DNA from: Octopus vulgaris
Taxonomy: Eukaryota
Assembly (NCBI GenBank): GCA_951406725.2
Contig: OX597817.1
Location: forward strand, 24,552,001-24,616,000
Direction: 5' to 3'
DNA length: 64,000 nucleotides
Shown piece by piece: positions 12,031 through 58,257 of the stretch. The notes beneath the pieces are model-generated. The model was not told the origin of the DNA. It ran no database searches and saw only the letters and a program-made list of their open reading frames with translations. Both the position numbers and the translations under genes were made by a program. Position 1 is the stretch's first letter. Every line of letters starts with the position of its first letter.

Positions 12031-12310
12031 GCAATGCTTTCTTCCTTTGTCAACACAATACATGCATATTGTGTTGATGAAGGAAGAAAGCATATGTTTT
12101 GCATTAATCCAGAAACTGGAATCAATTCACAATTAACATGAGATCTTTATAAGTACTTCAAGCATGCTGGAGACAGGTTGTTTTCACCCTGTCTCCCTTG
12201 ATATAATCATATACATATGTAAATTATTAATTTAATGTATTAATTAACTATAAATTTTTATAGCATACTGACTACTTGATAAAAATCATTAACATGATTT
12301 TTATCCTTAA

Positions 12311-12933
12311 GTGGCTGTGTGGTAAGTAGCTTGCTAACCAACCACATGGTTCCGGGTTCAGTCCCACTGCGTGGCATCTTGGGCAAGTGTCTTCTGCTAT
12401 AGCCCCGGGCCGGCCAATGCCTTGTGAGTGGATTTGGTAGACGGAAACTGAAAGAAGCCTGTCGTATATATATGTATGTATATATATATGTATGTGTGTG
12501 TGTATGTTTGTGTGTCTGTGTTTGTCCCCCTAGCATTGCTTGACAACCAATGCTGGTGTGTTTATATCCCCGTCACTTAGCGGTTCAGCAAAAGAGACCG
12601 ATAGAATAAGTACTGGATTTACAAAGAATAAGTCCTGGGGTCAAGTTGCTCGACTAAAGGCAGTGCTCCAGCATGGTTGCAGTCAAATGACTGAAACAAG
12701 TGAAAGAGCATATATATATGTGTCTGTGTTTGTACCCCTAGCATTGCTTGACAACCGATGCTGGTGTGTTTACGTCCCCGTCACTTAGCGGTTCGGCAAA
12801 AGAGACCGTTAGAATAAGTACTGGGCTTACAAAGAATAAGTCCCGGGGTCGATTTTCTCGACTAAAGGCGGTGCTCCAGCATGGCCGCAGTCAAATGACT
12901 GAAACAAGTAAAAGAGTAAAAGAGTAAAAGAGT
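12311..12933 (+). mobile_element. SINE family A with tandemly duplicated 3' half
   Basis: Copy 12311-12708 is followed directly by a second microsatellite-plus-3'-half (12709-12933) ending (GTAAAAGA)n. Confidence 0.9.
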
Positions 12934-13058
12934 ATATATATATATATATATATATTTTCAATAGCTGGAAATCTGAAGCTACATTTGAATTTCATAAAAC
13001 ATTTGGTAATAAGTTATCAGATGATTATGAAAATTAATGAATAAAATTTACATACCCC

Positions 13059-13094
13059 GGTGCAGGTGTGGCTGTGTGATAAGAAGCTTGCTTC
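13059..13094 (+). mobile_element. 5' head of a split old SINE family A copy
   Basis: GGTGCAGGTGTGGCTGTGTGATAAGAAGCTTGCTTC; the rest of the SINE resumes at 15720. Confidence 0.85.
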
Positions 13095-13594
13095 TGGTTC
13101 CGGTCGTTAGTGTTCTTCACTGTACCCTTGAAGTCGTCACGCTGGTGTGCAGCTGGCGAAAATTGAATACCTAAGACGCTCTACCGTAAGGTAAGACTTT
13201 CTGCTTTTTGAGTCCAGTAGGATTTGTTACCTATAGGTCTTATTTTTTTTGTACAAGCAAGGAGTCCTTACTGGATTCGGAGCTTTTTGTCTGCCTTGCG
13301 GTGGAGACGTGTGCGTTCTCTCACATAATTGTGAGAAATTGTTTAATTCTCATTTGATTATTGTCCAGGAGTACTTTTTGGCCGAATATTAATTTCTTTA
13401 CTAGCATTTGAACTCTCTTTTCACAGCTATCATTTATTTTTTAAAAAAAGAACTTTAGTGAACTATTGTTTTTATTTTTTCTTCCCTTTTGTTGTGTCTT
13501 TCCTTCTTTTTCTGTGTATCTTTTTTTATTTGAAGCCGTATTGTGAACTGTATTTGAACTTTTTTAAAAAAAAGAATGGCAATGGAATTAGGAA

Positions 13595-14401
13595 TTGATA
13601 CCTTCCAAAACATGGATAAAGGAGCTCGAGGGGAGGACGGTGGTGTTGAGGACTTGTTCAGAGTCACTTGATGCCATAGCCATCTTCCTGAGGGTCACAA
13701 TTCTGAAGGAGCTGGCAGAGTACATGCCAGCCATTGAATTTATTTCACGGGGAGTCGGGATTGCAACGGTCTGGTTGCTGTTTGACTCCCCACAGGAAGC
13801 TTGCGATTTTGCGGGTCGGCCCCTGGAGGGCAAGGAAGTTATGTTTCTTCCCAGTTATTGTGGGAAGAAGCTGATGAGGGCTTGGGTCTGTGGTTTACCA
13901 CCTGGAATTGAGCCCGAGTGGATGGAGGATTCTATCCACTGGGGTCTGGGTGGTGGCAGTGCCGAGCTGCTTAACGTGAAAATTTTGCCTGCGGCTGATT
14001 GGGAGTGGTCAAAAGCTGTTTTGATCCGGTGGACCCAGTCGGCCCAGAGTCTGGTTTTTCCAGATTTTTTTAGGATGGCCGAGTCTAGGTATCCGGTGAT
14101 GCGCGAGGGACGCCCTTCCAAGTGTCATCTGTGCCTGGAGACCGGTCACATCGGGAAGAGCTGCCCCAGGGACCAAAATAGGATCCTGGAGCAGTTGATG
14201 GAGGAGTCGCTCCCTGCTCCTTCAATGGAGGGAGGGGGGAGGAGGGTGACGAGGAGGTTTCCACCTCCTCGAAAAAACGAAAGCGAAAGGTGCCCACCGA
14301 AGGACTCGAGGCTGCGGGAGAAAAGAAGGACACCAACCTCCCGCGGCCCAAGGGTAAAAGAAAAGAAAAAAGAAAAACGGGACATTGCCGGCGGGTTGTG
14401 A
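13595..14401 (+). CDS. gag/ORF1-like nucleic-acid-binding protein with CCHC zinc knuckle (L1/Tx1-type ORF1 architecture); probably frameshifted near its start
   Basis: 268-codon GC-rich ORF; CHLCLETGHIGKSC = CX2CX4HX4C at 14123-14164; basic tail; upstream ATGGCAATGG (13576) is one base out of frame. Confidence 0.7.
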   Translation: MIPSKTWIKELEGRTVVLRTCSESLDAIAIFLRVTILKELAEYMPAIEFISRGVGIATVWLLFDSPQEACDFAGRPLEGKEVMFLPSYCGKKLMRAWVCGLPPGIEPEWMEDSIHWGLGGGSAELLNVKILPAADWEWSKAVLIRWTQSAQSLVFPDFFRMAESRYPVMREGRPSKCHLCLETGHIGKSCPRDQNRILEQLMEESLPAPSMEGGGRRVTRRFPPPRKNESERCPPKDSRLREKRRTPTSRGPRVKEKKKEKRDIAGGL

Positions 14402-14810
14402 CACGCCGCCAGCGTCTCCCTATTCTTCTTCGGCGGGTGTGCCGCTGGAGGAGGAATTTGTAGTCCTCTTTCACAAGGGAGGAACTGTGCAGAATGAAAT
14501 TTAAAAAATTGAAAGGAAGGGCCAGTGGGAGGGGCTTCTGTCCTGCACGGGGGACCCTGAGTGGCCTTCGCAGGTGGCTGCGGAGGTCTTATGGGATAGT
14601 GATCTGTGCAGGATAACGAATTCCTTCCCAGCGGACTCCTATAGATATATGGCCAAGTGGTCTGGCTTGGAACCGAATAGATGCTTCAATGAAGCAAGGA
14701 GCCTGGTTGGACGAAAAACTTGAAGTATTGAACGTTTGGACTCAAAAAGAGTCTACAAAATGTAAAAAAAAGTGAAAGGATTATTGCCTCGTGGGTGTGT
14801 TTTTTCAATA

Positions 14811-14940
14811 TTGAACAATGTACGAGGTTTATAGCCTCATTGTGCTTCAAAAAGGAAAAAAAAAGAATTCTGAACTATATAAGAGGTTTATCGCCTCATT
14901 GTGTTTTTTATTAAAAAAAAGGAGGAAAAAAAGAACAATG
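14811..14940 (+). repeat. about 60-bp imperfect tandem duplication in the E1 3' region
   Basis: GAGGTTTAT(A/C)GCCTCATTGTG followed by an A-rich run occurs twice. Confidence 0.8.
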
Positions 14941-15100
14941 TTTTAGAGAAGCGAAAGTCGGCGGACGCTTTTCGTCTTCTCCCATCCTAATCATCCTTGC
15001 ATCATTATCATTCATCCCATTAATGTCTGTGTCCAGCCCGCAAGCTTCTCTCTGTGTGCTGCCCTTGTGGCAAATTAAATGAAATAAAGAACCTTGCTTC

Positions 15101-15705
15101 CGGTTGAACAGTGAGAAAAAAGAAGAAAAACAGAGAAGGTTGTCGAGGTAGGTGATTTTGTTTGTTGTGAGCTGGGCATAATTTATTGCGTGTGAATTAT
15201 TTTTTCAGTAAATTGTGCTCAGCTCTGGGACAATTCCGCCTGCTCTCGGCGGCTGCTGTTTTTGTACATCGAGAATTTATTGAATTCAGTTTTGGTGGGG
15301 CGTATCCTCGCCCGAATAGAACATGTTGCTGTTGCAGTTACCGTTGGCTGTAGCCAGCATTGTGTTTGAATTTGTGGATTAATTTACCAATTAACGGACA
15401 AAAAAAATGATTTATGCCAAGGACCCTATCCACATTAGGCCGGGATTACCTGTTGGCCGGGAGATTGGATTTTTGCCGTGTGAACTGTTTTTCTATTTTC
15501 CGTTTATCCTTCCTGATTTTCTCTTTCCTTTTGAACTATTAATTAATTTTTGGACTTACTTTGTTTTATTATTTTTTTTTATACCTTTTTTACATTCTCT
15601 TTGAACTTTGAACTTTTTTTAGAAATTTTAAGACTTTCTTTTTTTGCACATGGCAAAAACACAAGCTTCTCTGTATAAGGCCTATATGGCCAATTTAATG
15701 AAATA
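15101..15705 (+). mobile_element. element E2: non-coding relative of E1
   Basis: Bounded by target copies 15087-15100 and 15706-15719; shares TGAACT motifs, ATGGCA and the 3'-terminal 45 bp with E1. Confidence 0.7.
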
Positions 15706-15719
15706 AAGAAGTTTGCTTC

Positions 15720-16018
15720 TGAAAAACATGGTACCAGTTACAGTTTCATCACATGGCACCATGAGCAAGTGTTTTCTACTAAAGCCTTGAGCTGACCAAA
15801 GCCATGTGAGTGGTTTTAGTAGACAAAAACTCTGTGTGTGTGTGAGATTGTCTCTCTCTACTGCTTAACAATCAGGGTTAATTTGTTTACATCCTTTTTT
15901 ACCACTGGTTTGGCAAAAAGAGACAACAGAATATGTACCAGGCTTAAATAAGAAATTAGTATGGTGATTGATTTATTTTACTAAATATGGCCTGAGTCCA
16001 TTGAAACAAGTAAAAGAG
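15720..16018 (+). mobile_element. remainder of the split SINE family A copy
   Basis: ACATGGTACC...CATGGCACC...GCAAGTGTTTTCTAC...GACCAAAGCC...GAAACAAGTAAAAGAG, collinear with family A. Confidence 0.85.
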
Positions 16019-16628: not shown

Positions 16629-19600
16629 TATATTGCCATACTGTTGTGACCATCAAATTGTTCTTTTTGAGTCTTTCCCATGTCTGCTTTATCCTCTAAA
16701 TTAATTTTTGAATACATATTGCCATATGCCATACTGTTGTGACCATCAAATTGTTCTTTTTGAGTCTTTCCCATGTCTGCTTTATCCTCTAAATTAATTT
16801 TTGAATACATATTGCCATACTGTTGTGACCATCAAATTGTTCTTTTTGAGTCTTTCCCATGTCTGCTTTATCCTCTAAATTAATTTTTGAATACATATTG
16901 CCATACTGTTGTGACCATCAAATTGTTCTTTTTGAGTCTTTACCATGTCTGCTTTATCCTCTAAATTAATTTTTGAATACATATTGCCATACAGTTGTGA
17001 CAATCAAATTCTTCTTTTGAGTATTTCCCATGTCTGCTTTATCCTCTAAATTAATTTTTGAATACATATTGCCATACTGTTGTGACCATCAAATTGTTCT
17101 TTTAGAGTCTTTCCCATGTCTGCTTTATCCTCTAAATTAATTTTTGAATACATATTGCCATACTGTTGTGACAATCAAATTCTTCTTTTTGAGTCTTTCC
17201 CATGTCTGCTTTATCCTCTAAATTAATTTTTGAATACATATTGCCATACTGTTGTGACCATCAAATTGTTCTTTTTGAGTCTTTCCCATGTCTGCTTTAT
17301 CCTCTAAATTAATTTTTGAATACATATTGCCATACTGTTGTGACCATCAAATTCTTCTTTTTGAGTCTTTCCCATGTCTGCTTTATCCTCTAAATTAATT
17401 TTTGAATACATATTGCCATACTGTTGTGACCATCATATTGTTCTTTTTGAGTCTTTCCCATGTCTGCTTTATCCTCTAAATTAATTTTTGAATACATATT
17501 GCCATACTGTTGTGACCAACAAATTGTTCTTTTTGAGTCTTTCCCATGTCTGCTTTATCCTCTAAATTAATTTTTGAATACATATTGCCATACAGTTGTG
17601 ACAATCAAATTGTTCTTTTTGAGTCTTTCCCATGTCTGCTTTATCCTCTAAATTAATTTTTGAATACATATTGCCATACAGTTGTGACAATCAAATTGTT
17701 CTTTTTGAGTCTTTCCCATGTCTGCTTTATCCTCTAAATTAATTTTTGAATACATATTGCCATACAGTTGTGACCATCAAATTGTTCTTTTTGAGTCTTT
17801 CCCATGTCTACTTTATCCTCTAAATCAATTTTTGAATACATATTGCCATACTGTTGTGACCATCAAATTCTTCTTTTTGAGTCTTTCCGATGTCTGCTTT
17901 ATCCTCTAAATTAATTTTTGAATACACATTGCCATACTGTTGTGACCATCAAATTGTTCTTTTTGAGTCTTTCCCATGTCTGCTTTATCCTCTAAATTAA
18001 TTTTTGAATACATATTGCCATACTGTTGTGACCATCAAATTGTTCTTTTTGAGTCTTTCCCATGTCTGCTTTATCCTCTAAATTAATTTTTGAATACGTA
18101 TTGCCATACAGTTGTGACAATCAAATTGTTCTTTTTGAGTCTTTCCCATGTCTGCTTTATCCTCTAAATTAATTTTTGAATACATATTGCCATACTGTTG
18201 TGTTGCCATACAGTTGTGACAATCAAATTCTTCTTTTTGAGTCTTTCCCATGTCTGCATTATCCTCTAAATTAATTTTTGAATACATATTGCCATACTGT
18301 TGTGACCATCAAATTGTTCTTTTTTAGTCTTTCCCATGTCTGCTTTATCCTCTAAATTAATTTTTGAATACATATTGCCATACAGTTGTGACAATCAAAT
18401 TGTTCTTTTTGAGTCTTTCCCATGTCTGCTTTATCCTCTAAATTAATTTTTGAATACATATTGCCATACAGTTGTGACAATCAAATTGTTCTTTTTCAGT
18501 CTTTCCCATGTCTGCATTATCCTCTAAATTAATTTTTGAATACATATTGCCAGACAGTTGTGACAATCAAATTGTTCTTTTTGAGTCTTTCCCATGTCTG
18601 CTTTATCCTCTAAATTAATTTTTGAATACATATTGCCATATAGTTGTGACAATCAAATTGTTCTTTTTGAGTCTTTCCCATGTCTGCTTTATCCTCTAAA
18701 TTAATTTTTGAATACATATTGCCATACAGTTGTGACAATCAAATTGTTCTTTTTGAGTCTTTCCGATGTCTGCTTTATCCTCTAAATTAATTTTTGAATA
18801 CATATTGCCATACAGTTGTGACCATCAAATTGTTCTTTTTAGTCTTTCCCATGTCTGCTTTATCCTCTAAATTAATTTTTGAATACATATTGCCATACAG
18901 TTGTGACAATCAAATTGTTCTTTTTGAGTTTTTCCCATGTCTGCTTTATCCTCTAAATTAATTTTTGAATACATATTGCCATACAGTTGTGACAATCAAA
19001 TTGTTCTTTTTGAGTCTTTCCCATGTCTGCTTTATCCTCTAAATTAATTTTTGAATACATATTGCCATACAGTTGTGACCATCAAATTGTTCTTTTTGAG
19101 TCTTTCCCATGTCTGCATTTATCCTCTAAATTAATTTTTGAATACATATTGCCATACTGTTGTGACAATCAAATTGTTCTTTTTGAGTCTTTCCCATGTC
19201 TGCTTTATCTTCTAAATTAATTTTTGAATACATATTGCCATACTGGTTGTGACAATCAAATTGTTCTTTTTCAGTCTTTCCCATGTCTGCTTTATCCTCT
19301 AAATTAATTTTTGAATACATATTGCCATTCTGTTTTGAACAATCAAATTGTTCTTTTTGAGTCTTTCCCATGTCTGCTTTATCCTCTAAATTAATTTTTG
19401 AATACATATTGCCATACAGTTGTGACAATCAAATTTTTCTTTTTGAGTCTTTCCCATGTCTGCTTTATCCTCTATATTAATTTTTGAATAAATATTGCCA
19501 TAAAGTTGTGACAATCAAATTGTTCTTTTTCAGTCTTTCCCATGTCTGCTTTATCCTGTAAATTAACTGTAAGTCCTTATTGTCATACTGTTTTGACTAT

Positions 19601-22600
19601 CATATTGTTCTTTTTCAGTCTTTCCCTTGTCTGCTTTATCCTATAAATTAACTGTAATACATATTGCCATACTGTTTTGACCATCATATTGTTCTTTTTC
19701 AGTCTTTCCCTTGTCTGCTTTATCCTGTAAATTAACTGTAAGTCCTTATTGCCATACTGTTTTGACCATCATATTGTTCTTTTTCAGTCTTTCCCTTGTC
19801 TGCTTTATCCGGTAAATTAACTGTAAGTCCTTATTGCCATACTGTTTTGACCATCATATTGTTCTTTTTCAGTCTTTCCCTTGTCTGCTTTATCCGTAAA
19901 TTAACTGTAAGTCCTTATTGCCATACTGTTTTGACCATCATATTGTTCTTTTTCAGTCTTTCCCTTGTCTGCTTTATCCGGTAAATTAACTGTAAGTCCT
20001 TATTGCCATACTGTTTGACCATCATATTGTTCTTTTTCAGTCTTCCTTGTCTGCTTTATCCGGTAAATTAACTGTGAGTCCTTATTGCCATACTGTTTTG
20101 ACCATCATATTGTTCTTTTTCAGTCTTTCCCTTGTCTGCTTTATCCGGTAAATTAATTGTAAGTAATTATTGCCATACTGTTTTGACCATCATATTGTTC
20201 TATTTCAGTCTTTCCCTTGACTGATTTATCCGGTAAATTAACTGTAAGTCCTTATTGCCATACTGTTTTGACCATCATATGGTTCTTTTTCAGTCTTTCC
20301 CTTGTCTGCTTTATCCGGTAAATTAATTGTAAGTCCTTATTGCCATACTGTTTTGACCATCATATTGTTCTTTTTCAGTCTTTCCCTTGTCTGCTTTATC
20401 CGGTAAATTAACTTGTAAGTACCTTATTGCCATACTGTTTTGACCATCATATTGTTCTTTTTCAGTCTTTCCCTTGTCTGCTTTATCCGGTAAATTAACT
20501 GTAAGTCCTTATTGCCATACTGTTTTGACCATCATATTGTTCTTTTTCAGTCTTTCCCTTGTCTGCTTTATCCGGTAAATTAATTGTAAGTCCTTATTGC
20601 CATACTGTTTTGACCATCATATTGTACTTTTTCAGTCTTTCCCTTGTCTGCTCTATCCGGTAAATTAATTGTAAGTACTTATTGCCATACTGTTTTACCA
20701 TCATATTGTACTTTTTCAGTCTTTCCCTTGTCTGCTTTATCCGGTAAATTAACTGTAAGTCCTTATTGCCATACTGTTTTGACCATCATATTGTACTTTT
20801 TCAGTCTTTCCCTTGTCTGCTTTATCCGGTAAATTAATTGTAAGTACTTATTGCCATACTGTTTTGACCATCATATTGTACTTTTTCAGTCTTTCCCTTG
20901 TCTGCTTTATCCGGTAAATTAATTGTAAGTCCTTATTGCCATACTGTTTTGACCATCATATTGTTCTTTTTCAGTCTTTCCCTTGTCTGCTTTATCCGGT
21001 AAATTAACTGTAAGTCCTTATTGCCATACTGTTTTGACCATCATATTGTTCTTTTTCAGTCTTTCCCTTGTCTGCTTTATCCGGTAAATTAACTGTAAGT
21101 CCTTATTGCCATACTGTTTTGACCATCATATTGTTCTTTTTCAGTCTTTCCCTTGTCTGCTTTATCCGGTAAATTAATTGTAAGTACTTATTGCCATACT
21201 GTTTTGACCATCATATTGTTCTTTTTCAGTCTTTCCCTTGTCTGCTTTATCCGGTAAATTAACTGTAAGTCCTTATTGCCATACTGTTTTGACCATCATA
21301 TTGTTCTTTTTCAGTCTTTCCCTTGTCTGCTCTATCCGGTAAATTAATTGTAAGTCCTTATTGCCATACTGTTTTGACCATCATATTGTACTTTTTCAGT
21401 CTTTCCCTTGTCTGCTTTATCCGGTAAATTAATTGTAAGTACTTATTGCCATACTGTTTTGACCATCATATTGTACTTTTTCAGTCTTTCCCTTGTCTGC
21501 TTTATCCGGTAAATTAATTGTAAGTACTTATTGCCATACTGTTTTGACCATCATATTGTACTTTTTCAGTCTTTCCCTTGTCTGCTTTATCCGGTAAATT
21601 AACTGTAAGTACTTATTGCCATACTGTTTTGACCATCATATTGTACTTTTTCAGTCTTTCCCTTGTCTGCTTTATCCGGTAAATTAATTGTAAGTACTTA
21701 TTGCCATACTGTTTTGACCATCATATTGTTCTTTTTCAGTCTTTCCCTTGTCTGCTTTATCCGGTAAATTAATTGTAAGTACTTATTGCCATACTGTTTT
21801 GACCATCATATTGTACTTTTTCAGTCTTTCCCTTGTCTGCTTTATCCGGTAAATTAATTGTAAGTCCTTATTGCCATACTGTTTTGACCATCATATTGTT
21901 CTTTTTCAGTCTTTCCCTTGTCTGCTTTATGCGGTAAATTAATTGTAAGTACTTATTGCCATACTGTTTTGACCATCATATTGTACTTTTACAGTCTTTC
22001 CCTTGTCTGCTTTATGCGATAAATTAATTGTAAGTACTTATTGCCATACTGTTTTGACCAACATATTGTACTTTTTCAGTCTTTCCCTTGTCTGCTTTAT
22101 CCGGTAAATTAATTGTAAGTACTTATTGCCATACGGTTTTACCATCATATTGTACTTTTTCAGTCTTTCCCTTGTCTGCTTTATCCTGTAAATTAACTGT
22201 AAGTACTTATTGCCATACTGTTTTGACCATCATATTGTTCTTTTTCAGTCTTTCCCTTGTCTGCTTTATCCGGTAAATTAACTGTAAGTACTTATTGCCA
22301 TACTGTTTTACCATCATATTGTACTTTTTCAGTCTTTCCCTTGTCTGCTTTATCCGGTAAATTAATTGTAAGTACTTATTGCCATACTGTTTTGACCATC
22401 ATATTGTTCTTTTTCAGTCTTTCCCTTGTCTGCTTTATCCGGTAAATTAACTGTAAGTCCTTATTGCCATACTGTTTTGACCATCATATTGTTCTTTTTC
22501 AGTCTTTCCCTTGTCTGCTTTATCCTGTAAATTAACTGTAAGTCCTTATTGCCATACTGTTTTGACCATCATATTGTTCTTTTTCAGTCTTTCCCTTGTC

Positions 22601-25600
22601 TGCTTTATCCTGTAAATTAACTGTAAGTCCTTATTGCCATACTGTTTTGACCATCATATTGTTCTTTTTCAGTCTTTCCCTTGTCTGCTTTATCCTGTAA
22701 ATTAACTGTAAGTCCTTATTGCCATACTGTTTTGACCATCATATTGTTCTTTTTCAGTCTTTCCCTTGTCTGCTTTATCCGGTAAATTAATTGTAAGTCC
22801 TTATTGCCATACTGTTTTGACCATCAGTTGTTCTTTTCAGTCTTTCCCTTGTCTGCTTTATCCTGTAAATTAACTGTAAGTCCTTATTGCCATACTGTTT
22901 TGACCATCATATTGTAATTTTTCAGTCTTTCCCTTGTCTGCTTTATCCGGTAAATTAATTGTAAGTCCTTATTGCTATACTGTTTTGACCATCATATTGT
23001 TCTTTTTCAGTCTTTCCCTTGTCTGCTTTATCCGGTAAATTAATTGTAAGTCCTTATTGCTATACTGTTTTGTCCATCAAATTGTTCTTTTTCAGTCTTT
23101 CCCATGTCTGCTTTATCCGGTAAATTAACTGTAAGTACTTGTTGCCATACTGTTTTGACCATCATATTGTAATTTTTCAGTCTTTCCCTTGTCTGCTTTA
23201 TCCGGTAAATTAATTGTAAGTCCTTATTGCCATACTGTTTTTACCATCATATTGAACTTTTTCAGTCTTTCCCTTGTCTGCTTTATCCGGTAAATTAATT
23301 GTAAGTACTTATTGCCATACTGTTTTGACCATCATATTGTTCTTTTTCAGTCTTTCCCTTGTCTGCTTTATCCAGTAAATTAATTGTAAGTCCTTATTGC
23401 CATACTGTTTTGACCATCATATTGTTCTTTTTCAGTCTTTCCCTTGTCTGCTTTATCCTGTAAATTAACTGTAAGTCCTTATTGCCATACTGTTTTGACC
23501 ATCATATTGTTCTTTTTCAGTCTTTCCCTTGTCTGCTTTATCCGGTAAATTAACTGTAAGTCCTTATTGCCATACTGTTTTGACCATCATATTGTTCTTT
23601 TTCAGTCTTTCCCTTGTCTGCTTTATCCTGTAAATTAACTGTAAGTCCTTATTGCCATACTGTTTTGACCATCATATTGTTCTTTTTCAGTCTTTCCCTT
23701 GTCTGCTTTATCCGGTAAATTAACTGTAAGTCCTTATTGCCATACTGTTTTGACCATCAAATTGTTCTTTTTCAGTCTTTCCCTTGTCTGCTTTATCCGG
23801 TAAATTAACTGTAAGTACTTATTGCCATACTGTTTTGACCATCATATTGTTCTTTTTCAGTCTTTCCCTTGTCTGCTTTATCCGGTAAATTAACTGTAAG
23901 TCCTTATTGCCATACTGTTTTGACCATCATATTGTTCTTTTTCAGTCTTTCCCTTGTCTGCTTTATCCGGTAAATTAACTGTAAGTCCTTATTGCCATAC
24001 TGTTTTGACCATCATATTGTTCTTTTTCAGTCTTTCCCTTGTCTGCTTAATCCGGTAAATTAACTGTAAGTCCTTATTGCTATACTGTTTTGTCCATCAA
24101 ATTGTTCTTTTTCAGTCTTTCCCTTGTCTGCTTTATCCTGTAAATTAACTGTAAGTCCTTATTGCCATACTGTTTTGACCATCATATTGTTCTTTTCAGT
24201 CTTTCCCTTGTCTGCTTTATCCGGTAAATTAACTGTAAGTCCTTATTGCCATACTGTTTTGACCATCATATTGTTCTTTTTCAGTCTTTCCCTTGTCTGC
24301 TTTATCCGGTAAATTAACTGTAAGTCCTTATTGCCATACTGTTTTGACCATCATATTGTTCTTTTTCAGTCTTTCCCTTGTCTGCTTTATCCGGTAAGTT
24401 AACTGTAAGTCCTTATTGCCATACTGTTTTGACCATCATATTGTACTTTTTCAGTCTTTCCCTTGTCTGCTTTATCCGGTAAATTAACTGTAAGTCCTTA
24501 TTGCCATACTGTTTTGACCATCATATTGTACTTTTTCAGTCTTTCTTTTGTCTGCTTTATCCGGTAAATTAATTGTAAGTACTTATTGCCATACTGTTTT
24601 GACCATCATATTGTTCTTTTTCAGTCTTTCCCTTGTCTGCTTTATCCGTAAATTAACTGTAAGTACTTATTGCCATACTGTTTTGACCATCATATTGTTC
24701 TTTTTCAGTCTTTCCCTTGTCTGCTTTATCCGGTAAATTAACTGTAAGTCCTTATTGCCATACTGTTTTGACCATCATATTGTTCTTTTTCAGTCTTTCC
24801 CTTGTCTGCTTTATCCGGTAAATTAATTGTAAGTCCTTATTGCCATACTGTTTTGACCATCATATTGTTCTTTTTCAGTCTTTCCCTTGTCTGCTTTATC
24901 CGGTAAATTAACTGTAAGTCCTTATTGCCATACTGTTTTGACCATCATATTGTTCTTTTTCAGTCTTTCCCTTGTCTGCTTTATCCGGTAAATTAACTGT
25001 AAGTCCTTATTGCCATACTGTTTTGACCATCATATTGTTCTTTTTCAGTCTTTCCCTTGTCTGCTTTATCCGGTAAATTAACTGTAAGTCCTTATTGCCA
25101 TACTGTTTTGACCATCATATTGTTCTTTTTCAGTCTTTCCCTTGTCTGCTTTATCCGGTAAATTAATTGTAAGTACTTATTGCCATACTGTTTTGACCAT
25201 CATATTGTTCTTTTTCAGTCTTTCCTTGTCTGCTTTATCCGGTAAATTAATTGTAAGTACTTATTGCCATACTGTTTTGACCATCATATTGTTCTTTTTC
25301 AGTCTTTCCCTTGTCTGCTTTATCCTATAAATTAACTGTAAGTACTTATTGCCATACTGTTTTGACCATCATATTGTTCTTTTTCAGTCTTTCCCATGTC
25401 TGCTTTATCCGGTAAATTAACTGTAAGTCCTTATTGCCATACTGTTTTGACCATCATATTGTTCTTTTTCAGTCTTTCCCTTGTCTGCTTTATCCGGTAA
25501 ATTAACTGTAAGTCCTTATTGCCATACTGTTTTGACCATCATATTGTTCTTTTTCAGTCTTTCCCTTGTCTGCTTTATCCGGTAAATTAACTGTAAGTCC

Positions 25601-28600
25601 TTATTGCCATACTGTTTTGACCATCATATTGTACTTTTTCAGTCTTTCCCTTGTCTGCTTAATCCGGTAAATTAACTGTAAGTCCTTATTGCCATACTGT
25701 TTTGACCATCATATTGTTCTTTTTCAGTCTTTCCCATGTCTGCTTTATCCTATAAATTAACTGTAAGTACTTATAGCCATACAGTTTTGACCATCATATT
25801 GTTCTTTTTCAGTCTTTCCTTTGTCTGCTTTATCCGGTAAATTAACTGTAAGTCCTTATTGCCATACTGTTTTGACCATCATATTGTTCTTTTTCAGTCT
25901 TTCCCTTGTCTGCTTTATCCTGTAAATTAACTGTAAGTCCTTATTGCCATACTGTTTTGACCATCATATTGTTCTTTTTCAGTCTTTCCCTTGTCTGCTT
26001 TATCCTGTAAATTAATTGTAAGTACTTATTGCCATACTGTTTTGACCATCATATTGTTCTTTTTCAGTCTTTCCCTTGTCTGCTTTATCCGGTAAATTAA
26101 CTGTAAGTACTTATTGCCATACTGTTTTGACCATCATATTGTTCTTTTTCAGTCTTTCCCTTGTCTGCTTTATCCGGTAAATTAACTGTAAGTACTTATT
26201 GCCATACTGTTTTGACCATCATATTGTTCTTTTTCAGTCTTTCCCTTGTCTGCTTTATCCGGTAAATTAACTGTAAGTACTTATTGCCATATTGTTTTGA
26301 CCATCATATTGTTCTTTTTCAGTCTTTCCCTTGTCTGCTTTATCCGGTAAATTAACTGTAAGTCCTTATTGCCATACTGTTTTGACCATCATATTGTTCT
26401 TTTTCAGTCTTTCCCTTGTCTGCTTTATCCGGTAAATTAACTGTAAGTACTTATTGCCATACTGTTTTGACCATCATATTGTTCTTTTTCAGTCTTTCCC
26501 TTGTCTGCTTTATCCGGTAAATTAACTGTAAGTCCTTATTGCCATACTGTTTTGACCATCATATTGTTCTTTTTCAGTCTTTCCCTTGTCTGCTTTATCC
26601 GGTAAATTAACTGTAAGTCCTTATTGCCATACTGTTTTGACCATCATATTGTTCTTTTTCAGTCTTTCCCTTGTCTGCTTTATCCGGTAAATTAACTGTA
26701 AGTCCTTATTGCCATACTGTTTTGACCATCATATTGTACTTTTTCAGTCTTCCACTTGTCTGCTTTATCCTGTAAATTAACTGTAAGTACTTATTGCCAT
26801 ACTGTTTTGACCATCATATTGTTCTTTTTCAGTCTTTCCCTTGTCTGCTTTATCCGGTAAATTAACTGTAAGTCCTTATTGCCATACTGTTTTGACCATC
26901 ATATTGTTCTTTTTCAGTCTTTCCCTTGTCTGCTTTATCCGGTAAATTAACTGTAAGTCCTTATTGCCATACTGTTTTGACCATCATATTGTTCTTTTTC
27001 AGTCTTTCCCTTGTCTGCTTTATCCTGTAAATTAACTGTAAGTCCTCATTGCCATACTGTTTTGACCATCATATTGTTCTTTTTCAGTCTTTCCCTTGTC
27101 TGCTTTATCCTGTAAATTAACTGTAAGTCCTTATTGCCATACTGTTTTGACCATCATATTGTTCTTTTTCAGTCTTCACTTGTCTGCTTTATCCTGTAAA
27201 TTAACTGTAAGTCCTTATTGCCATACTGTTTTGACCATCATATTGTTCTTTTTCAGTCTTCACTTGTCTGCTTTATCCTATAAATTCACTGTAAGTCCTT
27301 ATTGCCATACGGTTTTGACCATCATATTGTTCTTTTTCAGTCTTCACTTTTCTGCTTTATGCGGTAAATTAACTGTAAGTATTTATTGCCATACGGTTTT
27401 GACCATCATATTGTTCTTTTTCAGTCTTTCCCTTGTCTGCTTTATCCGGTAAATTAAATGTAAGTCCTTATTGCCATATTGTTTTGACCATCATATTGTT
27501 CTTTTTCAGTCTTTCCCTTGTCTGCTTTATCCTGTAAATTAACTGTAAGTCCTTATTGCCATACTGTTTTGACCATCATATTGTTCTTTTTCAGTCTTTC
27601 CCTTGTCTGCTTTATCCGTAAATTAACTGTAAGTCCTTATTGCCATACTGTTTTGACCATCATATTGTTCTTTTTCAGTCTTTCCTTGTCTGCTTTATCC
27701 GGTAAATTAATTGTAAGTACTTATTGCCATACTGTTTTGACCATCATATTGTTCTTTTTCAGTCTTTCCCTTGTCTGCTTTATCCGGTAAATTAATTGTA
27801 AGTACTTATTGCCATACTGTTTTGACCATCATATTGTTCTTTTTCAGTCTTTCCCTTGTCTGCTTTATCCGGTAAATTAACTGTAAGTCCTTATTGCCAT
27901 ACTGTTTGACCATCATATTGTTCTTTTCAGTCTTCACTTGTCTGCTATTGATTTTGCCTTATTGCCATACTGTTTTGACCATCATATTGTTCTTTTTCAG
28001 TCTTCCTTGTCTGCTTTATCTTAAATTATGTAAGTCCTTATTGCCATACGTTTGCCATCATATTGTTCTTTTCGCTTCTTCTGCTTTATCGTAAATTAAC
28101 TGTAAGTTTATTGCCATACTGTTTTGACCATCATATTGTTCTTTTTCAGTCTTTCCTTGTCTGCTTTATCGTAAATTAACTGTAAGTCCTTATTGCCATA
28201 CTGTTTTGACCATCATATTGTTCTTTTTCAGTCTTTCCCTTGTCTGCTTTATCCGGTAAATTAACTGTAAGTCCTTATTGCCATACTGTTTTGACCATCA
28301 TATTGTACTTTTTCAGTCTTTCCCTTGTCTGCTTTATCCGTAAATTAATTGTAAGTACTTATTGCCATACTGTTTTGACCATCATATTGTTCTTTTTCAG
28401 TCTTCACTTGTCTGCTTTATCCGGTAAATTAATTGTAAGTCCTTATTGCCATACTGTTTTGACCATCATATTGTTCTTTTTCAGTCTTCACTTGTCTGCT
28501 TTATCCTGTCAATTAGCTCTAAGTCCTTATTGCCATACTGTTTTGACCATCATATTGTACTTTTTCAGTCTTCCTTTTGTCTGCTTTTTCCGGTAAATTA

Positions 28601-30862
28601 ATTGTAAGTACTTATTGCCATACTGTTTTGACCATCATATTGTTCTTTTTCAGTCTTCACTTGTCTGCATAATCCTGTAAATTCCCTGTAAGTCCTTATT
28701 GCCATACTGTTTTGACCATCATATTTTTCTTTTTCAGTCTTTCCCTTGTCTGCTTTATCCTGTAAATTAACTGTAAGTACTTAATGCAATATTGTTTTGA
28801 CCATCGTATCGTTCTTTTTCAGTCTTTCCCTTGGCTGCTTTATCCTGTAAATTAAATGTAAATCCTTATTGCGATATTGTTTTGAGCATCATATTGTTCT
28901 TTTTCAGTCTTTCCCTTGTCTGCTTTATCCGGTAAATTAACTGTAAGTCCTTATTGCCATACTGTTTTGACCATCATATTGTTCTTTTTCAGTCATTCAC
29001 TTGTAAGCTTTATCCAGTAAATTAACTGTAAGTCCTTATTGCCATACTGTTTGGCCATCATATTGTACTTTTTCAGTCTTTCTTTTGTCTGCTTTTTCCG
29101 GTAAATTAACTGTAAGTCCTTATTGCCATACTGTTTTGACCATATTGTTTTTTTCAGTCTTCACTTGTTTGCATTATCCTGTAAATTCACTTTAAGTCCT
29201 TATTGCCATACTGTTTTGACCATCATATTGTTCTTTTTCAGTCTTCCTTGTCTGCATTATCCTGTAAATTCACTGGAAGTCCTTATTGCCATACTGTTTT
29301 TACCATCATATTTTCTTTTTCAGTCTTCACTTGTCTGCTTTATCCTGTAAATTAACTGTAAGTCCTTATTGCCATACTGTATGACCATCTTATTGTTCTT
29401 TTTCAGTCTTCACTTGTCTGCATTATCCTGTAAATTCACTGTAAGTCCTTATTGCCATACTGTTTTTACCATCATATTGTTCTTTTTCAGTCTTCTCTTG
29501 TCTGCATAATCCTGTAACTTAATTGTAAGTCCTTATTGCCATACTGTTTTGACCATCATATTGTTCTTTTTCAGTCTTTCCCTTGTCTGCTTTATGCGGT
29601 AAATTAACTGTAAGTCCTTATTGCCATACTGTTTTGACCATCATATTGTTCTTTTTCAGTCATTCCCTTGTCTGCTTTTTCCGGTAAAGTAACTGTGAGT
29701 CCTTATTGCCATACTGTTTTGACCATCATATACTACTTTTTCATTCTTTCCCTTGTCTGCTTTATCCGGTAAATTAACTGTAGGTCCTTATTGCCATACT
29801 GTTTTGACCATCATATTGTTCTTTTTCAGTCTTTCCCTTGTCTGCTTTATCCAGTAAATTAACTGTAAGTCCTTATTGCCATACGGTTTTGACCATCATA
29901 TTGTTCTTTTTCAGTCTTCACTTGTCTGCATTATCCTGTAAATTCACTTTAAGTCCTTATTGCCATACTGTATGACCTTCTTATTGTTCTTTTTCAGTCT
30001 TCACTTGTCTGCATTATCCTGTAAATTCACTGTAAGTCCTTATTGCCATACTGTTTTGACCATCTTATTGTTCTTTTTCAGTCTTCACTTGTCTGCTTTA
30101 TCCTGTAAATTAACTGTAAGTCCTTATTGCCATACTGTTTTGACCATCATATTGTTCTTTTTCAATCTTCACTTGTCTGCATTATCCTGTAAATTCACTG
30201 GAAGTCCTTATTGCCATACTGTTTTTACCATCATATTTTTCTTTTTCAGTCTTCACTTGTCTGCATAATCCTGTAAATTCACTGTAAGTCCTTATTGCCA
30301 TACTGTTTTGACCATCATATTGTTCTTTTTCAGTCTTCACTTGTCTGCATTATCCTGTAAATTCACTGTAAGTCCTTATTGCCATACTGTTTTTACCATC
30401 ATATTGTTCTTTTTCAGTCTTCACTTGTCTGCATAATCCTGTAAATTCACTGTAAGTCTTTATTGCCATACTGTTTTGACCATCATATTGTTGTTTTTTA
30501 TTCTTCACTTGTCTGCTTTATCCTGTAAATTAACTGTAAGTCCTTATTGCCCTACTGTATGACCATCTTATTGTTCTTTTTCAGTCTTCACTTGTCTGCA
30601 TTATCCTGTAAATTCCCTGTAAGTCCTTATTGCCATACTGTTTTTACCATCATATTGTTCTTTTTCAGTCTTCACTTGTCTGCATAATCCTGTAAATTCA
30701 ATGTAAGTCCTTATTGCCTTCCTTTTTTTACCATCATATTGTTCTTTTTCAGTCTTTTCCTTGTCTGCTTTTTCCTGTAAATTAACTGTAAGTCCTTATT
30801 ACCATACTGTTTTGGCCATCATATTGTTCTTTTTCAGTCTTTCCCATGTCTGCTTTATCCTC
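16629..30862. repeat. tandem satellite, about 167 units of 84-86 bp
   Basis: Unit TTGCCATACTGTT(G/T)TGACCATCA(A/T)ATTGTTCTTTTT(G/C)AGTCTTTCCC(A/T)TGTCTGCTTTATCC...; period counted as 86 (17241 to 17327), 85 (20941 to 21026) and 84 distally; copy number is length/85. Confidence 0.98.
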
Positions 30863-57916: not shown

Positions 57917-58101
57917 TACTACTACTACTACTACCACCACCACCACCACCACTACTACTACTACCACCACCACCAGCATCACCACTACTACCACCACCAC
58001 CCACCACCACCACCACCATCACTACTACTACCACCACCACCAGCATCACCACTACTACCACCACCACCACCACCACCACCACCACTACTACTACCACCAC
58101 C

Positions 58102-58132
<31 letters not shown>

Positions 58133-58164
58133 CCACCACCACCACCACCACTACTACTACTACC

Positions 58165-58199
<35 letters not shown>

Positions 58200-58257
58200 C
58201 ACTACCACCACCACCACTACTACTACTACCACCGCCACCACTGCCACTGCTGCTGCA
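57917..58257. repeat. compound (ACC)n/(ACT)n trinucleotide repeat
   Basis: Direct reading; explains the poly-V and poly-G/S ORFs. Confidence 0.95.

Follow-up and report, generated by a model that had tools for sequence, protein, structure and literature searches.

Several families of Tx1-type long interspersed elements (LINEs) insert at preferred sequences. Kojima 2015 (PMC4494074) describes families whose target is another transposon, namely Tx1L in Tx1D (Xenopus), Tx1-Mar in Mariner-N4_AMi, Tx1-9_AMi in Harbinger, and Tx1-8_Crp and Tx1-4_AMi in long terminal repeat elements, together with Tx1 families that target U2 small nuclear RNA (snRNA) genes or microsatellites and SINEU passengers that share a target. 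Other targets in the group are U2 snRNA (Keno), 5S ribosomal RNA (Mutsu), the tRNA-Leu spacer (Dewa) and microsatellites (Kibi/Koshi; PMC4494074, PMC3706591). Here we describe a system of this class in Octopus vulgaris, based on a stretch of 64,000 nucleotides (assembly GCA_951406725.2, contig OX597817.1, positions 24,552,001 to 24,616,000; hereafter the window) in which two retroelements, E1 and E2, stand in tandem in the head of a transfer RNA (tRNA)-derived short interspersed element (SINE). We consider it very likely that a sequence-specific L1/Tx1-type LINE system inserts at one base after the A-box equivalent of this abundant SINE, making a 15-bp duplication, and that E1 and E2 are dead passengers with only the first open reading frame (ORF1), likely moved in trans by a 5.45-kb autonomous partner. 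Sequence-specific Tx1-type retrotransposons are a known class; new here are the target, the RNA polymerase III (Pol III) head of a SINE, and a site-specific lineage of ORF1-only passengers.

In common with the transposon-targeting Tx1 families, the octopus system has an apurinic/apyrimidinic-type endonuclease and reverse transcriptase (APE-RT), a CCHC-bearing ORF1, a preference for an abundant transposon, tandem stacking, and non-autonomous passengers on the shared target (SINEU there). It differs from them in its target, a SINE Pol III head entered at a single exact base, the duplication having a fixed length of 15 bp, and in a passenger that encodes its own ORF1; Tx1-Mar instead enters a DNA transposon in two regions, near positions 240 and 830. 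Like Keno, Mutsu, Dewa, Kibi and Koshi, it is a case of site-specific Tx1-group insertion into multicopy small-RNA-related DNA, but where those use host genes or simple repeats, the target here is itself a selfish repeat, whose exact heads number at least 84,349, and it is cut inside a tRNA-like promoter and not in a spacer. Dada elements strike tRNA genes at the A box or anticodon (PMC3706591, PMC8869645) and thus also insert near these parts of tRNA-type promoters, but they are DNA transposons in real tRNA genes, with short duplications and an unrelated enzyme. A 2026 octopus repeat annotation (PMC13282606) lists L1-Tx1 families, 13 of them recently active, with 80 in a supplementary table, and the words 'target' and 'nested' are absent from its main text. 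The excerpts of PMC3747384, PMC4758252, PMC9115989 and PMC9223172 hold nothing on this SINE-target system, and we found no report of a SINE-targeting LINE or of an octopus system of this kind in the literature searched, Repbase and subscription papers lying outside it.

At the locus the SINE is split as the sequence-only reading of the window had proposed, with copies of a 14-mer at 13081-13094 (no mismatch), 15087-15100 (one mismatch) and 15706-15719 (one mismatch) bracketing E1 and E2. The window contains 13 matches to this 14-mer at up to two mismatches versus 0.49 expected (0 of 100 shuffles reached 13), and the ten further matches are mostly uninterrupted copies of the same SINE head. The repeat is real but measures 15 bp, not 14, as young copies carry perfect 15-mers; E1 therefore spans 13096-15086 and E2 15102-15705, and the SINE body resumes from 15721 instead of 15720. 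Head (13059-13080) and body (from about 15721) align to intact SINE copies of the window, with a best match of 79% over 148 nt. Alignment of the head to the tRNA genes of the genome placed the first cut at the downstream edge of the A-box equivalent, with the 15 duplicated nt reaching from the 3' strand of the D-arm into the anticodon arm, which corrects the earlier placement between the A and B boxes near the anticodon arm. ARAGORN and Rfam, run on the window, did not call the SINE head as a tRNA. E1 and E2 had been said not to align, but over the final 60 nt, the 14-mer among them, they show 78% identity (E 4e-9), and the ORF1 of full-length E2 relatives is 64–74% identical in DNA to that of E1. 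A simple local duplication is nevertheless ruled out, as had been argued, because only the tails are shared and the two derive from different subfamilies. The three duplicated 15-mers show one to three differences. The parts of the locus are:

13059–13080, forward strand: 5' part of the tRNA-derived SINE head with the A-box equivalent, upstream of the insertion site; matches intact heads of the window and aligns to tRNA-Lys-like and tRNA-Ala genes (z about 5 versus shuffles)
13081–13095, forward strand: target-site duplication, copy 1 (15 bp)
13096–15086, forward strand: E1, a full-length but dead ORF1-only non-autonomous retroelement of about 2.0 kb (5' untranslated region, ORF1, 3' region of about 390 nt, no ORF2); colinear with relatives such as L092 (81.5% over 1.87 kb), in a family that ends on the target genome-wide on both sides
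13576–14699, forward strand: remains of E1 ORF1; the ATG at 13576 is out of frame with the open frame 13592–14401, the CCHC knuckle lies at about 14120–14167, and a second frame break lies near 14337–14383
15060–15072, forward strand: 3' hairpin of E1 (4-bp stem, 5-nt loop), common to the autonomous partner
15087–15101, forward strand: target-site duplication, copy 2, at the E1/E2 junction
15102–15705, forward strand: E2, derived from a sister ORF1-only subfamily by internal deletion; the 5' untranslated region and ORF1 up to its fourth codon (ATG at 15650) are fused near 15661 to the final 45 nt or so of the tail
15679–15691, forward strand: 3' hairpin of E2, with a G-C outer pair where E1 has T-A
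15706–15720, forward strand: target-site duplication, copy 3
15721–16018, forward strand: downstream part of the SINE with the B-box equivalent and the body, aged and decayed; identity to a young empty copy is 72% over 126 nt, and other window copies match as well

Across the genome (2.8 Gb, 227 contigs), loci for on-target counts were collected with queries from which the target sequence had been left out; they are denoted by L numbers. The 3' ends lay on the target at 25 of 30 loci of the E1 family (24 of 29 without the window's own locus), at 36 of 38 loci of an older RT-bearing family, and at 15 of 16 loci of a young one; in both RT-bearing sets every located tail was on target, and the misses were loci with no tail in the stretch fetched. 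The on-target share of 83–95% in these three sets compares with 4% in control families (one of 25 located ends of other zf-RVT families, 30 loci examined) and with 157 of 200,000 random window positions (0.08%), and it lies above the level of more than 20% of flanks in one target type by which PMC4494074 defines sequence specificity. At the 5' side the target precedes 27 of 30 copies, 23 of them behind a SINE head and four behind the tail of another member. A tail-only pattern had 163 genomic matches; among the 100 listed, a hand count placed 86 on target (including five near-identical duplicates on one contig, C14), with three internal tail repeats and 11 off target or unclear, a count slightly biased toward SINE flanks by the exclusion of G from the pattern's last base. 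Insertion site and orientation are fixed at one base among the copies examined. The suggested tabulation of flanks thus bore out that the target is strongly over-represented at element ends, with the SINE body or another family member behind it. Passengers and partners also form mixed tandem arrays (L222, L304, L185, L190), in one of which, L222, a passenger, a partner and a passenger share one SINE, and the two are therefore linked.

Longer APE-RT copies with the same tail, whose existence the sequence-only reading had made a check, were recovered on the same target. RT-bearing copies were reached via the tail-plus-target loci L211 and L178, and a protein search gave a young family with open frames of 1,140–1,150 amino acids (aa); starting instead from zf-RVT gave other families of the genome, the ends of which are not on the SINE. 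The four partner copies L263–L266 are 5.45 kb long and about 99% identical to each other, and all four have a perfect 15-bp duplication in a SINE head. Their ORF2 is intact (1,133 aa) with the layout APE-RT-zfRVT and the motifs NVRG, ETK, GDFN, DRI, TDH and YADD, while ORF1 has 467 aa from the ATG in L263 and is broken in the other three. Pieces of the partner family matched the Pfam domains Exo_endo_phos (PF03372), RVT_1 (PF00078) and zf-RVT, the first two over the cut-off, and ORF1 matched zf-CCHC over the cut-off with C, C, H and C invariant in the alignment. The closest solved protein is human L1 ORF2p (E 6e-67, versus 7e-20 for R2), and database relatives of ORF2 are mostly unnamed proteins. 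In a tree of 29 RT sequences (11 of our own and 18 of 120 database matches) the partner falls in a 13-row clade (100/99) whose other members are an Argonauta protein and further families of the genome. Outside this clade, on a long branch, stands a coral protein that bears the name 'Transposon TX1 149 kDa' (36% identity). Judged from the domain layout and this named homolog, the partner is likely a member of the Tx1 group. Its DNA resembles that of the passengers only in the last 19–38 nt, a common tail of about 40 nt that contains a hairpin with a 4-bp stem and a 5-nt loop, and its ORF1 is 25% identical to theirs.

Further Tx1-like families were seen in the same genome. An intact family with a 1,140-aa ORF2 (L156, L159–L162; G000:C2:73040500-73069500 and others), sister of the partner in the tree, occurs in a 5.4-kb tandem array with an identical downstream flank in five of five printed loci, and is probably a second sequence-specific family. 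Other families (L165, L166; L169; L151–L154) comprise one with a common downstream flank at two loci, one that ends in an (ATT)n microsatellite and one with varied flanks, and several end in a similar small hairpin before AATAAA. We interpret the Tx1-like families as a radiation of targets within one genome.

The open frame of E1 (269 aa with a CCHC knuckle) is part of a frameshifted ORF1 that is intact in its relatives (394–427 aa). With this frameshifted ORF1 and no ORF2 in E1, and the jump from the fourth codon to the tail in E2, both are therefore dead members of an ORF1-only lineage; the proposed SINE-targeting system is supported as to the targeting, but E1 and E2 are not plain truncated copies of an autonomous element. 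Relatives of E2 match its positions 14–561 and then run into a homologous ORF1, and the E2 deletion junction was spanned by none of the 39 other best places. A protein search gave 9,902 ORF1 candidates, and many of the best 150, which were scored, have open frames near 400 aa. ORF1-only copies measure about 2.0–2.3 kb between the duplications at most paired loci, and a search for ORF2 inside them gave no match at E 1e-8. Young copies of 2.24–2.26 kb are near-identical and have matching ends (L171–L176, L186). The subfamilies differ in their 5' ends and have a 3' region of 76–165 nt in common; compared with the partner they gave no DNA match beyond the tail at E 1e-4. One subfamily (L102, L112, L117) has an internal duplicate of the tail 238 nt before the true end.

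Passenger ORF1 is predicted to consist of two RRM-like domains followed by the CCHC knuckle; an AlphaFold model from 13 aligned ORF1s (pLDDT 82.8) matched tandem-RRM proteins (Foldseek E about 1e-4; best VIA-align Z 8.8, root-mean-square deviation 2.9, 81 aligned). RRM/CCHC ORF1s have been called consistent with Tx1 (PMC5203782), and the one database homolog is an Octopus sinensis protein. The ratio of non-synonymous to synonymous substitution rates (dN/dS, Nei-Gojobori), calculated on the first 204 alignment columns of 23 ORFs chosen as intact, was 0.15–0.23 between distant subfamilies, where dS is near saturation, and 0.10–0.27 between close ones; because of these low values, we take passenger ORF1 to be under purifying selection. 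The parents of E1 and E2 share with HAL1 (half-L1), a mammalian non-autonomous L1 derivative that codes for ORF1p only and has several origins (PMC5753468), the presence of ORF1, the absence of ORF2 and multiplication as a family, and like HAL1 the lineage is non-autonomous and long-lived. HAL1 proper, however, is derived from mammalian L1 and has a poly(A) tail, whereas the octopus lineage is from an invertebrate, has a Tx1-type RRM-RRM-CCHC ORF1 divergent from that of its present partner, ends in a hairpin with most junctions free of poly(A), and is site-specific. The lineage is old, and it works like HAL1 without being a HAL1 member. Sequencing runs under four organism codes contain 0.28–0.73 of the words of a young ORF1-only copy (query L175:300-2900, SINE parts included), and one second-organism run covers its ORF1; on such matches the family is probably common to related species. 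The young copy is also present in runs presumed to be RNA, in one of them as a contig of 2,083 nt, a match that is evidence neither for transcription nor for a start site.

The best local alignments of the SINE head are to tRNA-Lys-like and Ala genes of the genome (z about 5), and by this tRNA-homologous head and its high copy number we class the target SINE as tRNA-derived. Octopus SINEs named OK, OR1 and OR2 were reportedly described by Ohshima and Okada in 1994, OK being said to derive from tRNA-Lys. Because the genome contains at least 84,349 exact heads and at least 337 exact tail-plus-target junctions, both lower bounds, the occupancy of SINE heads is probably of the order of 1%. Three or four variants of the SINE are occupied by family members. 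Just upstream of the locus (window 12310-12934) lies a copy of the same SINE with the target unoccupied and a 208-bp tandem duplication of its 3' part. Just after the insertion, the window has a 14-kb satellite at 16631-30860 (85-bp unit, about 168 copies, 94–95% matches), and an (ACC)n tract of about 103 units lies at 57933-58241.

Locus-private SINE variants are present at both ends of the insertion in L009, L011, L021, L023, L041 and L120, and at three junctions in L190. At least nine 5' truncation points adjoin the head and the duplication (L007, L008, L009, L011, L015, L017, L023, L026, L029), and the off-target copy L002 is flanked by a different duplication that belongs to this locus; L014 and L016 look similar. 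Since private variants recur at both ends, truncated copies start on the same base and L002 has a duplication of its own, the repeat is target-derived. A 14-mer that is a fixed part of the element, which together with unrelated flanks had been named as the outcome that would speak against targeting, is ruled out for the 3' copy and for truncated copies. In three small groups of full-length copies (three, two and three loci), an unusual variant recurs at positions 9–15 of the upstream copy, while the downstream copy differs. These recurrent variants at different loci suggest that part of the site is already present in the RNA at its 5' end, and that the 3' half of the upstream copy (about 7 nt) may be element-borne in some subfamilies, at few loci. 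Target sequence at the RNA 5' end would aid exact junctions as in R2 of 28S rRNA genes, in which the R2Bm transcript keeps 27 nt of target (PMC6895275). Unlike the octopus elements, with their apparent 7 nt at few loci, R2 has a restriction-like endonuclease and a ribozyme. The junction of the target with the E1-type 5' end (window 13090-13105 and relatives) makes CTTCCGG repeats, and other subfamilies begin with GCGCATGCGC-like words. Both kinds of word presumably resemble ETS and NRF1 promoter motifs, as candidates, hinting at a putative internal Pol II promoter completed by the target.

Several observations weigh against parts of the reading of E1 and E2 as passengers of a SINE-targeting LINE. 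With five of 30 E1-family ends off target, and 11 of the 100 listed tails off target or unclear, specificity is strong but not absolute. The closeness of paired duplications, which favours the reading (a mean difference of 1.83 bases versus 3.15 when shuffled; 0 of 10,000; 70 pairs), comes from a test in which duplicated loci and six internal-repeat pairs are counted and subfamily is a confounder. Mismatches between duplications are skewed to positions 9–15 (62 versus 13; 62 pairs), a skew also seen in 13 truncated or unrecognised pairs (25 versus 9), and the element-borne 5' end therefore rests on the three small groups with recurrent variants. The hairpin likewise favours the reading, as its four pairs form in 111, 112, 113 and 117 of 119 tails and the outer pair is T-A in 95 and G-C in 16 (0 of 5,000 shuffles; covarying on both sides), but these are counts of sequences and not of independent events, and the folding energy of the tail is unremarkable beside that of shuffled sequences (z -0.2 to -1.9). 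One pair gave an outlying dN/dS of 0.56 (L112, short ORF, dS 0.05). The intact partner copies examined sit in the 'TAAC' variant of the SINE and the E1/E2 subfamilies mostly in the 'AAG..TTCC' variant; because these variants differ, the own partner of E1 is probably an older, now decayed family, and some older RT copies (L229, L235, L249) are on 'AAG..TTCC'. At L303 (G000:C4:127352600-127358900) a near-full ORF1-only copy runs, across a 6-nt overlap, into the 3'-terminal 3.8 kb of the partner, in which ORF2 is frameshifted; both outer ends are on target. We regard L303 as a chimera from a template switch or a deletion and, as a single case, rejected it as an autonomous element with an E1-type ORF1; no such element was found among the best 150 of the 9,902 ORF1 candidates, those that were scored. 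Nicking, mobilisation in trans and promoter loss are inferred.

The last points touch on the best-surviving alternative, in which ORF1-only copies are repeated deletion products of an undetected autonomous family with an E1-type ORF1, where the low dN/dS was earned. Internal deletions are indeed frequent (L021, L032, L035, L053, L087, E2), L303 has an E1-type ORF1 upstream of partner ORF2, and the candidates scored were the best 150; on the other side, all ORF1-only subfamilies compared have one homologous 3' region without a trace of ORF2, the young 2.24–2.26-kb copies are near-identical with matching ends, dN/dS is low among close ORF1-only relatives too, and L303 is one junction with a short overlap and a broken ORF2. 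We regard this alternative as improbable. Slightly less probable still is that targeting is real but is, or originally was, directed at a genuine tRNA gene or a short motif, the SINE head being struck by resemblance. The head is tRNA-derived, a comparable choice of site is made by Dada transposons, which enter tRNA genes close to the A box and the anticodon (PMC8869645), and off-target flanks still often start with AAGAAG. On-target flanks, however, run into the SINE body or into family members, tens of thousands of exact heads exist, and the 12-nt target core occurred with fewer than three mismatches in 0 of 30 sampled tRNA-like loci (about seven isotypes); of the two landing pads proposed earlier, the SINE or its parent tRNA, the SINE therefore looks like the target on this partial sample. 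It is very improbable that the common flank reflects ancestry, with a single ancestral insertion having been multiplied together with its SINE as one composite, through retrotransposition or segmental duplication: head and body are the same in all copies and some loci are near-identical duplicates (five on C14; L087/L088), but the distinct truncation points, the use of the site by many subfamilies, autonomous and ORF1-only, in several SINE variants, the duplicated private variants and the off-target duplication of L002 largely remove this alternative.

For the SINE-targeting LINE with its passengers, we infer a course based on established target-primed reverse transcription. The endonuclease would nick the site, the partner machinery would recognise the passenger tail in trans, RNA ends may pair with the target, and ORF1p may package in cis; the SINE would lose its Pol III promoter, with A and B boxes moved 2.6 kb apart. 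We give even chances to a wider, three-tier parasite system, in which an active, base-precise Tx1-type LINE on the Pol III promoter of the dominant SINE would track changes of SINE subfamilies, and an ancient ORF1-only lineage under its own selection would hijack this LINE through the 3' hairpin, both with target-mimicking RNA ends that would make junctions exact. If true, no SINE-specific retrotransposon would have been described before this one, which would also act as a natural suppressor of SINE promoters and provide a compact APE-type enzyme whose 15-bp target is precise.

The finding adds SINE Pol III heads as a target class to those of site-specific retrotransposons. Such heads form a self-renewing safe harbour, with tens of thousands of dispensable sites furnished by another parasite. 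Nested copies get split or mislabelled, which affects the repeat annotation of such genomes. With partner copies that are intact and 99% identical, and with sister families on other targets, one genome offers a natural series for finding what sets the specificity of APE endonucleases, which bears on tools for site-specific gene insertion. The ORF1-only lineage, with its divergent and selected ORF1, opens to testing the questions of whether the action of ORF1p is in cis and why ORF1 is retained by an element that is non-autonomous.

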